The notes below the pieces were generated by a model, which saw nothing but the letters and a program-made list of their open reading frames with translations, was not told where the DNA came from and did not search any database. The translations under genes and the position numbers were made by a program. Positions 43,752 through 50,866 of a stretch of DNA of 64,000 nt are shown in pieces. How positions within the stretch are numbered: position 1 is the stretch's first letter; each line of letters begins with the position of its first letter. Location of the stretch: assembly GCA_951406725.2 (NCBI GenBank), contig OX597817.1:89466001-89530000 (forward strand). The letters run 5' to 3'. The stretch comes from Octopus vulgaris. Taxonomy: Eukaryota.

Positions 43752-44166
43752 CTCTTTACTCTTTTACTTGTTTCAGTCATTTGACTGTGGTCATGCTGGA
43801 GCACCGCCTTTAGTCGAGCAAATCGATCCCAGGACTTATTCTTTGTAAGCCTAGTGCTTATTCTATCGGTCTCTTTTGCCGAACCGCTAAGTTACGGGGG
43901 CGTAAACACACCGCCATCACTTGTCAACCGATGTTGGGGGGATAAACACAGACACACAAACATATACATACGCACACACACATATACATATATACATATA
44001 TACGACGGGCTTCTTTCAGTTTCCGTCTACCAAATCCACTCTCAAGGCTTTGGTTGACCTGAGGCTATAGTAAAAGACACTTGCCCAAGTTGCCACGCAG
44101 TAGGACTGAACCTAGAACAATAAGGTTCGTAAGCAAGCTACTTACCACACAGCCACTCCTACGCCT
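43752..44166 (-). mobile_element. tRNA-derived SINE (family A)
   Basis: Head ggcgtaggagtggctgtgtggtaagtagc…ggttcagtcc; internal microsatellite; ctctttta tail. Confidence 0.88.
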
Positions 44167-44408
44167 ATATATATATATTGGCGTAAGAGTGGCTGTGTGG
44201 TAAGTATATATATATATATATATACTAAGCAATAAAGGGTTTAGCAACTAGTTGCCTTACCACATACCGAATTTAGAAATAGCAGTCAAAGAGTTATAGC
44301 TATTTCTTCTACTAAAAGGGGATCTCAGTAAAAACAGCAATTGGAAGGCAGACACAAACAGGTAAGAGAGGATGAATTAACGGCAATCTATCATACAATT
44401 TTAAGTTA

Positions 44409-44509
44409 TCTACGGACGAACGTTTCGAAATCAAGTCTTTAGGAAAGCATAAGAATTAAATGTTAAATAATTCTATCTTACCGAAAACTTCTTTTCTCTT
44501 CAGCGTAGA
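44409..44509 (-). ncRNA. Type I hammerhead ribozyme, array copy 1 (stem III loop variant)
   Basis: TCTACG-CTGAAGA-G[long hairpin]C-GAAA-CGTTCG-TC-CGTAGA. Confidence 0.8.
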
Positions 44510-45105
44510 ATACTATAATCATAAATGATTATATATTGAATTTTGAGATACTAGAAGGCATTAACTCAACTCAGTATCAGAGCGAGCTAGAATCCGCAAC
44601 TAGTATCACCAAATTCAATGTTTGAATGAAAAGATTGTGTCACCAGCCCCTTCCCACCCAAGGCATCAACTCAACTCAGTATCAGAGCGAGCTAGAATCC
44701 GCAACTAGTATCACCAAATTCAATGTTTGAATGAAAAGATTGTGTCACCAGCCCCTTCCCACCCGCGTGTAGCCAAAACATGATGCTGTGGTCATCTACT
44801 GAGATAAAATATGGTTATCCGTAATAATGAAGGGTGAAATTAATTAATTTGGAATAATTATCAATTACACCAAGTAGTCTTCGGCATGTAAAAGCCTCAT
44901 TTGAGGAAAATTTAAGTAATACTAAGCAATAAAGGGTTTAGCAACTAGTTGCCTTACCACATACCGAATTTAGAAATAGCAGTCAAAGAGTTATAGCTAT
45001 TTCTTCTACTAAAAGGAGATCTCAGTAAAAACAGCAATTGGAAGGCAGACACAAACAGGTAAGAGAGGATGAATTAACGGCAATCTATCATACAATTTTA
45101 AGTTA

Positions 45106-45206
45106 TCTACGGACGTACGTTTCGAAATCAAGTCTTTAGGAAAGCATAAGAATTAAATGTTAAATAATTCTATCTTACCGAAAACTTCTTTTCTCTTCAG
45201 CGTAGA
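45106..45206 (-). ncRNA. Type I hammerhead ribozyme, array copy 2
   Basis: TCTACG-CTGAAGA-G[long hairpin]C-GAAA-CGTACG-TC-CGTAGA; canonical core, GUC site. Confidence 0.85.
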
Positions 45207-45698
45207 ATACTATAATCATAAATGATTATATATTGAATTTTGAGATACTAGAAGGCATCAACTCAACTCAGTATCAGAGCGAGCTAGAATCCGCAACTAG
45301 TATCACCAAATTCAATGTTTGAATGAAAAGATTGTGTCACCAGCCTCTTCCCACCCGCGTGTAGCCAAAACATGATGCTGTGGTCATCTACTGAGATAAA
45401 ATATGGTTATCCGTAATAATGAAGGGTGAAATTAATTAATTTGGAATAATTATCAATTACACCAAGTAGTCTTCGGCATGTAAAAGCCTCATTTGAGGAA
45501 AATTTAAGTAATACTAAGCAATAAAGGGTTTAGCAACTGGTTGCCTTACCACATACCGAATTTAGAAATAGCAGTCAAAGAGTTATAGCTATTTCTTCTA
45601 CTAAAAGGGAGATCTCAGTAAAAACAGCAATTGGAAGGCAGACACAAACAGGTAAGAGAGGATGAATTAACGGCAATCTATCATACAATTTTAAGTTA

Positions 45699-45799
45699 TC
45701 TACGGACGTACGTTTCGAAATCAAGTCTTTAGGAAAGCATAAGAATTAAATGTTAAATAATTCTATCTTACCGAAAACTTCTTTTCTCTTCAGCGTAGA
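45699..45799 (-). ncRNA. Type I hammerhead ribozyme, array copy 3
   Basis: Identical fold to copy 2. Confidence 0.85.
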
Positions 45800-46291
45800 A
45801 TACTATAATCATAAATGATTATATATTGAATTTTGAGATACTAGAAGGCATCAACTCAACTCAGTATCAGAGCGAGCTAGAATCCGCAACTAGTATCACC
45901 AAATTCAATGTTTGAATGAAAAGATTGTGTCACCAGCCTCTTCCCACCCGCGTGTAGCCAAAACATGATGCTGTGGTCATCTACTGAGATAAAATATGGT
46001 TATCCGTAATAATGAAGGGTGAAATTAATTAATTTGGAATAATTATCAATTACACCAAGTAGTCTTCGGCATGTAAAAGCCTCATTTGAGGAAAATTTAA
46101 GTAATACTAAGCAATAAAGGGTTTAGCAACTGGTTGCCTTACCACATACCGAATTTAGAAATAGCAGTCAAAGAGTTATAGCTATTTCTTCTACTAAAAG
46201 GGAGATCTCAGTAAAAACAGCAATTGGAAGGCAGACACAAACAGGTAAGAGAGGATGAATTAACGGCAATCTATCATACAATTTTAAGTTA

Positions 46292-46392
46292 TCTACGGAC
46301 GTACGTTTCGAAATCAAGTCTTTAGGAAAGCATAAGAATTAAATGTTAAATAATTCTATCTTACCGAAAACTTCTTTTCTCTTCAGCGTAGA
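46292..46392 (-). ncRNA. Type I hammerhead ribozyme, array copy 4
   Basis: Identical fold to copy 2. Confidence 0.85.
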
Positions 46393-46883
46393 ATACTATA
46401 ATCATAAATGATTATATATTGAATTTTGAGATACTAGAAGGCATCAACTCAACTCAGTATCAGAGCGAGCTAGAATCCGCAACTAGTATCACCAAATTCA
46501 ATGTTTGAATGAAAAGATTGTGTCACCAGCCCCTTCCCACCCGCGTGTAGCCAAAACATGATGCTGTGGTCATCTACTGAGATAAAATATGGTTATCCGT
46601 AATAATGAAGGGTGAAATTAATTAATTTGGAATAATTATCAATTACACCAAGTAGTCTTCGGCATGTAAAAGCCTCATTTGAGGAAAATTTAAGTAATAC
46701 TAAGCAATAAAGGGTTTAGCAACTAGTTGCCTTACCACATACCGAATTTAGAAATAGCAGTCAAAGAGTTATAGCTATTTCTTCTACTAAAAGGAGATCT
46801 CAGTAAAAACAGCAATTGGAAGGCAGACACAAACAGGTAAGAGAGGATGAATTAACGGCAATCTATCATACAATTTTAAGTTA

Positions 46884-46984
46884 TCTACGGACGTACGTTT
46901 CGAAATCAAGTCTTTAGGAAAGCATAAGAATTAAATGTTAAATAATTCTATCTTACCGAAAACTTCTTTTCTCTTCAGCGTAGA
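46884..46984 (-). ncRNA. Type I hammerhead ribozyme, array copy 5
   Basis: Identical fold to copy 2. Confidence 0.85.
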
Positions 46985-47441
46985 ATACTATAATCATAAA
47001 TGATTATATATTGAATTTTGAGATACTAGAAGGCATCAACTCAACTCAGTATCAGAGCGAGCTAGAATCCGCAACTAGTATCACCAAATTCAATGTTTGA
47101 ATGAAAAGATTGTGTCACCAGCCCCTTCCCACCCGCGTGTAGCCAAAACATGATGCTGTGGTCATCTACTGAGATAAAATATGGTTATCCGTAATAATGA
47201 AGGGTGAAATTAATTAATTTGGAATAATTATCAATTACACCAAGTAGTCTTATATATATATATTAAGGCTTAACAGGGAACAAGACTTAACAGGGAACAA
47301 GCTGACAGACAACGCGTCTATGAAATAAATTACACCAAAAACAGAACACACCAACAATATCCTAATACCAGACCCAACCACCATACAGCACAAAACGACA
47401 CTAGAATAAGAAATACACCACACACAAGTCGCTACTACCCC

Positions 47442-49775
47442 ATGAACCAAAATTACTGGTACCCACTGAACACAAGACAAACGCAAAAAAACACTATGTC
47501 AAGCAACATCCCACATACAAGCAGTTCGAAACAAAAATATTTCACATACAGAAATTTTACACACACCACAAACAAAAACAACTATAGATTCCCACACACA
47601 CACACACAACAATCGGGGGCAACAATACCACCATTCCCCCGACCCAATATCACACAACCTCACAGACAACTCATACAAACAAAATTACACCCAACATTTT
47701 TTAGCCAGGGACCAGAGACACCAGGACACAGGCTGGAACCTAGTAATAAGGAAAAACCGAAGATAATCAATCTTTCAACCAAACCTCTTTCTAACATAAA
47801 AATTGACATCCTCTCAAAAGGGCTCAAATTTACACCAACTCCACGCAGAGCCAACCTAAATGAAATCAAGGATAATATAACAGAATTTTGCAGAAAATTA
47901 AGACTAGCAGAAGCATCAACCAGTTTCAATACTGAAGATGAATCACTAGTCAAGAACAAAAGTGAACACATCCCACATAGAGGAAAAAATAAAGATCTTG
48001 ACGAATTCTGTAACCACATTGAGAACTTTCCCTACCATACTATACATAAACAGAAAGTTAACTCAAATTTTAACACTACACAATGGTAGGAACTGATAGA
48101 ACTTCAAAATGATGAAGATATAACCATTAAGGAAGCAGACAAGGGAAATGCAGTTGTAATAATGGATACATCATACTATAGAAATCTTGTAATTTCCTTG
48201 CTTGATGACAACCAGCATTATGAAAAAATCACCAACTACACCCCACAAAAAATAATGAAAACTCTATCTTCACTAATTAAAACCCATGAAAAGGAACTAA
48301 CAACCAAAGAGATTGACTTTCTAACAAACTTTAAATGCAAACCTAGCCTCTTCTATGGTCTGCCAAAAATTCATAAAAGCCAAATTATAAATGAAACCAT
48401 TAAAAAATCACCAAAGACATACATACACACACCTAACCAGGGGGACCTAAAACTACGACCCATTGTAGCTGGCCCAACCTGTGAAACACACAGACTAAGT
48501 CTATTTATGGACATCCTCCTGAAACCCTTCCTTAAACATATCGATAGCCATATCAGAGATGACTTAGATATGTTAAACCACCTTCCAAAAAAAGCCAAGG
48601 AAGAAACAATCATGGTTTCATTTGATGTAGTTAACTTATATACCAGTATACCTCATAATTATGGACTAGAGGCAATACAGTTCTGGCTGGACCAATTTCC
48701 GGAAGAAATACCAAAAAGGATCAGTACAGAATTCATTACTAAATCAATTGAATTCATCCTACATAATAACCACTTCATGTTTGACAATACATTTTACCGT
48801 CAAAAATCCGGAATTGCTATGGGTACAAGGGCAGCACCAGTCATTGCGAACCTAACAATGGGCTACCTGGAAATAATCATTTACCAGGAATCTTTATCAA
48901 TCTTTGGAAACCCCCTCTCTCAATACATAAAAAATAATTGGAAACGATTCCTGGACGATTGTTTTATACTCTGGAATGAAAACACAGATAAACTCCTAAA
49001 ATTTTAAAACCTATTGAACAGCATAAACCCAAATATGCAGTTCACAATGGAATACAACCAAAAGGAGCTCCCATTCTTGGATATACTAATTTAAAAAATT
49101 AACCTTAAAATAGAAACAGACATTTTTTACAAAGCCACAGACGCCAAACAATACCTTCTTTTTAATTCATGCCACCCAAGACACACTAAAACAAACATTC
49201 CCTTCAACCTTGCAAGAAGGATATGCACAATAGTGTCAGAACAAAATACCAGGAACTTTAGACTGCAAGAACTCAAAAACACCCTAATTGACAGACATTA
49301 CCCTGCTCAACTCATAGAGGATGGGATCAGACGTGCAACAGAAATCAACATAGAAACTTTAAGAAAAGTTCAACAAAGTAACACACCTTCCCCGAAAATA
49401 CTACCTTACATATCCACATACAACCCCAGAAACAAAGAAGCCTTCACCATCATCACCCAGAATTTACCAATACTTCATAAGGACCCCAAATTAAAGGAAA
49501 TTCTAAACATACACCAAATCATTAAAAGCTACAAACAACCTAAATCACTTAAAAAGATTCTCACAAAGGCAAAATTGTTTTCTGAAATTACGGATGCAAA
49601 AGTAAAAAAATGTGGTAGACCGAACTGTGCAACATGTCCCAACCTGCTAGAAGGATCAGAATTCCTCTTCAAAGAAGGACAGAAATTCAAGATCAAATCT
49701 AATTTTACTTGTGCCTCTGAAAACATAATTTATGTCATAAAATACTCGAGCTGCCACCAAGACTACGTGGATTAA
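47442..49775 (+). pseudogene. PLE reverse transcriptase/GIY-YIG ORF with three in-frame stops and deleted endonuclease C-terminus
   Basis: LSKGLKFTP, EADKG, FYGLPKIHK, LRPIV, SFDVVNLYTSIP, GIAMG, RFLDD, SCHP, CGRPNCATC, NIIYVIKY; listed ORFs 47442, 48162, 49233 share one frame; stops at 48087, 49005, 49092. Confidence 0.92.
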
Positions 49776-49884
49776 TCGATTATCTCCCTTACACCGGAAG
49801 AAATCACTTATTACCTCCCCTTATCTGGAACTCTTCTCAACATAAACATAACGATAAAACTTCTCAACGTAAACATAACGATGT

Positions 49885-49924
49885 AAGAAATTTGAAAAGC
49901 TGAACGCGAAACCGGTCATTTCTT
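49885..49924 (+). ncRNA. Minimal type I hammerhead ribozyme, U3-A8 core variant
   Basis: AAGAAAT-TTGAAAA-GC TGAAC GC-GAAA-CCGG-TC-ATTTCTT; perfect 7-bp stem I; position and orientation expected for a PLE pseudo-LTR. Confidence 0.8.
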
Positions 49925-50084
49925 CTAAACTATGTCATTGTAAGAAAAAAAATTATAACATTCTTCAGACATATTGACTCAAATATATATTTTTTAACCT
50001 TTTAAAACAAGCCTTCTGTAGTTTTTTCACTTTTTACTATTTTCTATATATTCAACCACGTGCTTTCACAAACCAACTTTCTCA

Positions 50085-50180
<96 letters not shown>

Positions 50181-50817: not shown

Positions 50818-50866
50818 TAGAATGACCGGTGGTTTCGCATCCATATAGACGACTCGTCAGACTCCA
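50818..50866 (-). ncRNA. Type I hammerhead ribozyme, canonical core
   Basis: Minus: TGGAGT-CTGACGA-GTCGTCT ATAT GGATGC-GAAA-CCACCGG-TC-ATTCTA; adjacent to (TA)n. Confidence 0.78.

Follow-up and report, generated by a model that had tools for sequence, protein, structure and literature searches.

A dispersed family of hammerhead-bearing tandem units in Octopus vulgaris with the probable character of a non-LTR retrozyme

Metazoan non-LTR retrozymes measure 170-400 nt in the animals tested (PMC7229834), and retrozyme units are given a range of 51-972 bp by Li, Clavereau and Pollet (bioRxiv 10.64898/2026.07.22.740005), who observed self-cleavage for only one of nine Xenopus retrozyme dimers (bioRxiv 2026.07.22.740005). 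The use of circles as templates for copying more than one unit was proposed in 2014 by Cervera and de la Pena (PMC4209133). The insertion marks of Penelope-like elements (PLEs) include tails at one end, inverted copies and (TA)n targets (PMC8557442), and the PLE protein Poseidon of the anole cuts and extends both strands, with two internal starts defining the tail (PMC11167929). Insertion by the anole PLE in vitro proceeds without hammerhead cutting, and its main template is unprocessed RNA (PMC11167929). The mobilisation of animal retrozymes is described as an open question in PMC8557442 and bioRxiv 2026.07.22.740005, as are PLE copies that are tandem, inverted or tailed at one end.

Here, we describe an analysis of a tandem array in a 64,000-nt stretch of the Octopus vulgaris genome (contig OX597817.1, positions 89,466,001 to 89,530,000), hereafter the window. 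We consider it probable that the array is a non-LTR retrozyme insertion, with a minus-strand RNA that is predicted to cleave itself, is likely circularised and is likely copied by a PLE enzyme into (TA)n tracts. The class, hammerhead retrozymes, is already known, and the family is a new member of it; no host function is indicated.

The array and its hammerhead motifs

The array consists of five head-to-tail units, with starts at 44223, 44920, 45512, 46105 and 46698, lengths of 697, 592, 593, 593 and ~555 bp and a GC content of 34-36%. Its parts and borders, in positions of the window, are as follows:

44205..44224: (TA)n target tract at the fixed end, where the insertion starts at site A (unit position 1)
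44223..47251, minus strand: putative single-armed retrozyme insertion of ~4.9 units plus a 105-bp duplication, with the minus strand as RNA sense
44555..44764, plus strand: 105-bp direct duplication within unit 1
47251..47263: (TA)n tract at the ragged, 5'-truncated end (unit position ~555)

An earlier note on this DNA had described ~593-bp monomers between (TA)n tracts; this holds for the array, with the qualification that unit 1, which contains the internal 105-bp duplication, is 697 bp long. We infer that site A is the reverse-transcription start of the window copy. No stop-free frame of more than 56 codons occurs in a unit dimer, the unit holds no ORF, and ten other ORFs of the window gave no Pfam match over the cut-off. 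The units are more than 99% alike, and the differences between them are linked substitutions. Two private substitutions are common to two adjacent monomers, so that local duplication also builds arrays; they indicate either one later local duplication or a multimeric donor.

Two observations concern the surroundings of the array. Just to its left, a short inverted repeat around a (TA)n tract (44140-44205) looks like the end of another common repeat folded back on itself. At 50820-50865 on the minus strand, just past a (TA)n tract, a further canonical hammerhead-like motif with CUGACGA, a 17-nt stem II and a GUC site probably belongs to the end of a different PLE or retrozyme family.

All five units carry the minus-strand hammerhead that had been claimed for each of them, in the order UCUACG, CUGAAGA, a 70-nt stem II, GAAA, stem III, GUC and CGUAGA. 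The motifs are of type I, with a stem II closed by a G-C pair and a two-pair stem III:

44409..44509, minus strand: type I hammerhead of unit 1, with the stem III loop variant ACGUUCGU; predicted cut 44415/44414
45106..45206, minus strand: type I hammerhead of unit 2; predicted cut 45112/45111
45699..45799, minus strand: type I hammerhead of unit 3, with the 70-nt stem II; predicted cut 45705/45704
46292..46392, minus strand: type I hammerhead of unit 4; predicted cut 46298/46297
46884..46984, minus strand: type I hammerhead of unit 5; predicted cut 46890/46889
45705..46297, minus strand: predicted cut-to-cut monomer of 593 nt; circular MFE -156.5 kcal/mol, z -7.4 against 40 shuffles

Stem III of unit 1 reads ACGUUCGU, which is non-palindromic, and the palindrome ACGUACGU, at first assigned to all units, is therefore present in only four of the five, units 2-5. 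Dimer pairing through G-U could still be achieved by the commonest loop III variant, which 15 family fragments carry. With a stem II of 70 nt, the loop 1-loop 2 contacts of canonical hammerheads may be missing. Rfam returned no hammerhead at gathering score for the window or at E<=10 for the array, and its matches in the search were chance sRNA only (E 1.3-1.6); a long stem II that defeats the hammerhead models would account for this miss. The circular MFE of the monomer compares with -115.8 +/- 5.5 kcal/mol for the 40 shuffles and -129.6 for the opposite strand, and the catalytic hammerhead fold lies 1.1 kcal/mol above the MFE.

The core, stem I and stem III are all intact in 158 of the 169 family fragments that cover the hammerhead (78 loci), and a reversed-pattern control gave no match, compared to 241 for the hammerhead word; the motif is therefore not a product of chance. 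The earlier note had named an unconserved core among genomic copies as an argument against its reading; the core is conserved. The hammerhead is also kept when letters are counted, with 0.41% non-consensus letters vs 1.57%. Between subfamilies, stem I changes in pairs (CUACG/CGUAG, UUGAG/CUCAA, AUCAUG/CAUGAU) while the core is kept; C3-G8 is replaced by U3-A8 in three superfamily copies, and mismatched cores occur in single related copies (U3-G8 in L138 and L159, C3-A8 in L148).

The family in the genome and its PLE neighbours

A genome search yielded 155 matches at 94-100% identity in the 40 scored of 1,970 candidates, and exact patterns gave 241 unit matches for the hammerhead word and 495 for a family 34-mer, compared to 0 for the controls. 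The first 100 of the 495 family-word matches fall in 60 loci, which extrapolates to ~300 loci as a lower bound. The 111 family loci examined lie on many contigs, have distinct flanks and are nearly all in (TA)n; the family is young, dispersed and protein-free. Haplotypes at ten loci differ by at most 0.6% from that of the window, whose sub-lineage is thus recent. A looser motif has ~7,000 matches in the genome, and the 40 loci of this superfamily that were examined comprise at least six subfamilies with closed units of ~520-600 bp or a common module, marked here on the array:

45994..46009, minus strand: start site B (unit positions 483/490/498, shown in unit 3), the second fixed end of the family, unused by the window copy
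45994..46210, minus strand: module common to the subfamilies, comprising the B site, a ~100-nt tail, the A site and a CCACATAC..TAGAAATAGCAG motif

The module is likely the region where reverse transcriptase binds and starts.

Among these relatives, a sub-lineage with units of ~601 bp, its stem II loop enlarged by a 7-nt insertion, forms up to ~7.5 tandem units (L065, L072, L075, L089, L092). A short retrozyme-relative fragment lies inside a larger repeat (2.0-2.7 kb, 93-98%) common to L141, L144 and L164 and found also in L135, L139 and L152; at L164, two copies of the larger repeat form a large inverted pair. A CCCTTCCCACCCGCGTG-like, GC-rich word at unit positions ~425-445 (window ~45935-45955) is conserved in the L073, L081 and L160 subfamilies, lies upstream of the hammerhead in RNA sense and is a possible internal promoter. 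At unit positions 91-99 of most multi-unit loci, the length of an A/G run varies within the locus far more than other sites do, owing either to reverse-transcriptase slippage on each lap or to sequencing error. Part of the unit is carried by 20 of 24 listed runs, under three organism labels; these are contigs only, without strand, ends or level, and none is recorded as RNA. One run contig joins across the unit boundary, as would result from both a circle and tandem DNA.

A PLE lies next to the array:

47280..50086, plus strand: Neptune-like PLE copy with RT and a Cys motif before GIY-YIG, its ORF interrupted by stops
49886..49923, plus strand: short hammerhead variant of this PLE (UUGAAAA core, U3-A8)

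This PLE is a separate full-length copy of a young family and not the source of the array. The unit has no match to it in blastn at word size 7 and E<=1, in keeping with what had been stated earlier, and the PLE has its own hammerhead and ends. A genome-wide search for a PLE ORF on the unit, which the earlier note had suggested, found none attached in tblastn with pieces of the neighbouring PLE, covering 76 of the 111 family loci and all 40 superfamily loci; tblastn matches in the flanks of both sets of loci are separate PLE copies. No PLE 3' end homologous to the unit or to four of its relatives was found in 30 loci of the adjacent PLE family and 30 GIY-YIG loci, nor in 20 Hydra-motif loci, several of them decayed, and matches outside PLE 3' ends in the searched PLE loci are read as separate insertions. 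Three short motifs gave 0, 0 and 3 matches in the supplement of Craig et al., in which a motif across a line break would escape, and the two matches examined were both unrelated. Two Octopus Naiad 3' ends and the Hydra-1_Obim end, compared by eye, had no homology to the unit. The proposal of a separate non-autonomous family is supported, the units being dispersed, non-coding and unrelated to the neighbouring PLE with its own UUGAAAA-core hammerhead. The Hydra-motif family (L239-L243, L261, L278) has tandem ~2,585-bp units with a CCGAAGA-core hammerhead, and its array at C1:57.21 Mb has four tandem copies and one inverted copy; autonomous elements of this genome also insert as multimers.

Insertion ends and the RNA template

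The outer ends of family copies fall at two sites, A (unit position ~1-13) and B (483-498), ~100 nt apart, and the inner ends of the arms are ragged, 5'-truncated and often inverted. This combination of fixed and ragged ends designates the minus strand as the RNA template, independently of the hammerhead. Among 60 loci taken in genome order, 31 were A+B, one was A plus another site, 22 were A only, six were B only, and none was A+A or B+B. A rule of one site per arm holds in 31 of the 32 two-armed loci (p 8e-9 against 0.5), with ends read by hand from blastn and uncertain by a few nt, and with B-only copies below ~166 nt escaping the search pattern. When 33 best-score loci are added, A+B accounts for 44 of 47 two-armed loci, and A+A or B+B for none. 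As a control, the autonomous Neptune-like family of the neighbouring PLE has one short and one long end, ~45 nt apart, in all eight two-armed copies with both ends visible, one of the eight having a repeat-blurred end, and the Hydra copy L279 likewise has one of each, ~65 nt apart. Target-site duplications are undefinable within (TA)n; the marks of PLE-type insertion found in the family are 5' truncation, an inverted copy, head-to-tail tandems and microsatellite targets. Re-insertion by a PLE enzyme, as the earlier note proposed, is supported by the (TA)n targets, the two fixed 3' ends and the inverted 5'-truncated arms, as in local autonomous PLEs.

Opposite arms of a locus were mismatched in 7 of 676 informative comparisons vs 159 expected from random pairs, and distances average 0.24% inside an arm, 0.35% from arm to arm and 1.9% from locus to locus, counting substitutions only and excluding gaps. 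Gene conversion after insertion is a possible source of this uniformity. Four of the seven mismatches lie in one locus, L031, whose arms carry different common haplotypes at four sites, with the switch inside one arm; two templates or conversion thus do occur. In 19 loci with at least three long units, 100 non-consensus letters were fixed, 35 were singletons and 9 were shared polymorphisms. The predicted cut site is crossed 158 times by cDNAs vs 9 stops within 180-197 (140 arms), which argues that the usual template is a circle or an uncut multimer and not a cut linear monomer.

For the retrozyme insertion we propose the following course. Read-through transcripts would be cut to 593-nt monomers, probably by dimeric hammerheads, and a host ligase would join the monomers into circles. 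A PLE protein dimer would bind the conserved A/B module and cut both (TA)n strands, priming on this single RNA would take place at A for one strand and at B for the other, and each cDNA could lap the circle several times. The arms would then be joined head to head, or only one would survive. The window copy would represent one surviving arm that started at A and made ~4-5 laps, with a later local duplication. Circularisation of the monomer RNA is supported only indirectly; a circle is favoured because long uniform arms recur in spite of the shortness of most arms, and because entire arrays are fixed for private letters.

The same retrozyme and PLE enzyme could instead use an uncut linear read-through multimer from a donor array, with no circle needed and a hammerhead that cuts slowly or serves some other step. 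Mutation of the hammerhead leaves insertion normal, with unprocessed RNA predominating (PMC11167929), the crossing of the cut site by most cDNAs is predicted for uncut RNA too, and donor arrays are internally homogeneous. A daughter arm cannot, however, exceed its donor run, and most arms are short (median 218 nt, with more than two units in 6 of 92 arms), so that arrays would shrink without regeneration. Furthermore, four letters absent from all other sampled loci are fixed in all units of L035, L046 and L172, as expected of a one-monomer bottleneck, and neither private variant of the window copy is present at any of the 10 sibling loci closest to it. Stops near the cut site are in weak excess (ratio 2.4, p 0.014-0.020, 93 pooled loci, interval chosen post hoc), which is a hint of cut RNA; the 60 genome-ordered loci gave no significant excess (4 of 50 ends, p 0.20), and 18 loci picked via the hammerhead word were excluded from the stop test as biased. 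On balance we regard a linear template as unlikely.

Somewhat more doubtful is an origin of the second arm by fold-back of one cDNA, the second end being set by endonuclease resolution and not by RNA priming; this touches the second arm only and does not conflict with the retrozyme reading. In 7 of the 31 A+B loci, the two arms terminate at the same unit position to within 10 nt, compared to 1.2 expected and in 0 of 20,000 permutations, a coincidence that the course proposed above leaves unexplained. Fold-back would also fit the correlation of arm lengths within loci (rho 0.54), one haplotype per locus would be its natural outcome, and Craig et al. ascribe the tail to endonuclease resolution (PMC8557442). 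It is at odds with the many loci in which neither arm contains the other (L061 with A 1-479 and B 490-505, L167, L169, L173, L176, L186), each of which would need a second round of copying from RNA or a later central deletion, with the occurrence of both A and B as starts of single-armed copies, and with the extension of both strands from RNA in vitro (PMC11167929).

It is improbable that the units derive from the 3' end (pseudo-LTR) of an autonomous PLE and were multiplied locally, as a minisatellite, through unequal exchange and made uniform through gene conversion. Such a route has been proposed by Li et al. (bioRxiv 2026.07.22.740005), the window itself shows a local duplication, and the search for a partner covered only part of the genome's PLEs. 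Yet the ragged ends are spread over the whole unit, an arm longer than one unit runs on into the next unit and never into coding sequence in the loci examined, arrays of a single haplotype with fixed outer ends are present on both inverted arms, and at least six related subfamilies have the same module or closed 520-600-bp units. Finally, a duplication in the assembly, which the >99% likeness of the units might suggest, is very improbable, since linked substitutions tell the units apart and the structure recurs, with distinct haplotypes, at dozens of other loci.

Comparison with known systems

As a candidate non-LTR retrozyme, the family shows in its sequence every tested feature of the metazoan class: type I hammerheads, non-coding units, low GC, dispersal and self-pairing. 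It has no LTR architecture, its ends being fixed start sites and ragged truncations, and the unit lacks the RT plus GIY-YIG ORF of an autonomous PLE. Tentatively, the at least six putative long-armed hammerhead circle families might constitute a viroid-like lineage of their own, with no surviving PLE parent, whose ~200-nt module would recruit the PLE dimer asymmetrically, site A serving as the start for one subunit and site B of that circle for the other. If so, the insertions of this lineage would be a genomic record of rolling-circle reverse transcription, and asymmetric A/B priming would explain the tail-at-one-end signature of PLEs. The family provides countable footprints, namely an A start paired with a B start in each insertion, a haplotype common to both arms and cDNAs that run past the cut, and the existing in vitro PLE assay could take its 593-nt unit as a small, defined substrate. 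The open-access literature compared yielded no description of this family or of a strict one-A-one-B rule, nor of the long stem II and the 100-nt tail.

Like metazoan non-LTR retrozymes (PMC7229834), the family has tandem non-coding units with one type I hammerhead each and GC <45%, forms dimers to multimers, is dispersed, has a highly self-paired monomer and shares its genome with PLEs. The earlier statement that the monomer is longer than typical stands against 170-400 nt (PMC7229834), whereas 593 nt lies inside the range of 51-972 bp (bioRxiv 10.64898/2026.07.22.740005). Stem II, ~4 bp in canonical motifs, is 70 nt here, and (TA)n targeting, inverted arms and two fixed start sites were not found described for metazoan retrozymes in the text compared of PMC7229834 and bioRxiv 10.64898/2026.07.22.740005. 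A homologous PLE pLTR is reported for 24 of 57 Xenopus families (bioRxiv 10.64898/2026.07.22.740005), whereas none was found for this family in our searches.

The hammerheads resemble those of PLEs (PMC4209133) in a short palindromic helix III predicted to act in dimers, a U3-A8 core variant and a G10.1-C11.1 pair. They differ from them in a canonical 6-bp stem I, a far longer helix II and a place in a free monomer rather than in a pLTR beside an ORF (PMC4209133).

Unlike EN+ PLEs (PMC11167929, PMC8557442), the retrozyme unit has no ORF. Its tail is ~100 nt, compared to 30-40 published and, in this genome, ~45 in the Neptune-like family and ~65 in Hydra. Poseidon showed no difference of start site between the strands in vitro (PMC11167929), whereas each two-armed insertion here takes one of each. 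With EN+ PLEs such as Poseidon of Anolis, Neptune, Hydra and Naiad, the family shares a pair of internal starts lying downstream of the hammerhead, a tail confined to one end, an inverted 5'-truncated arm, head-to-tail tandems and a preference for (TA)n.
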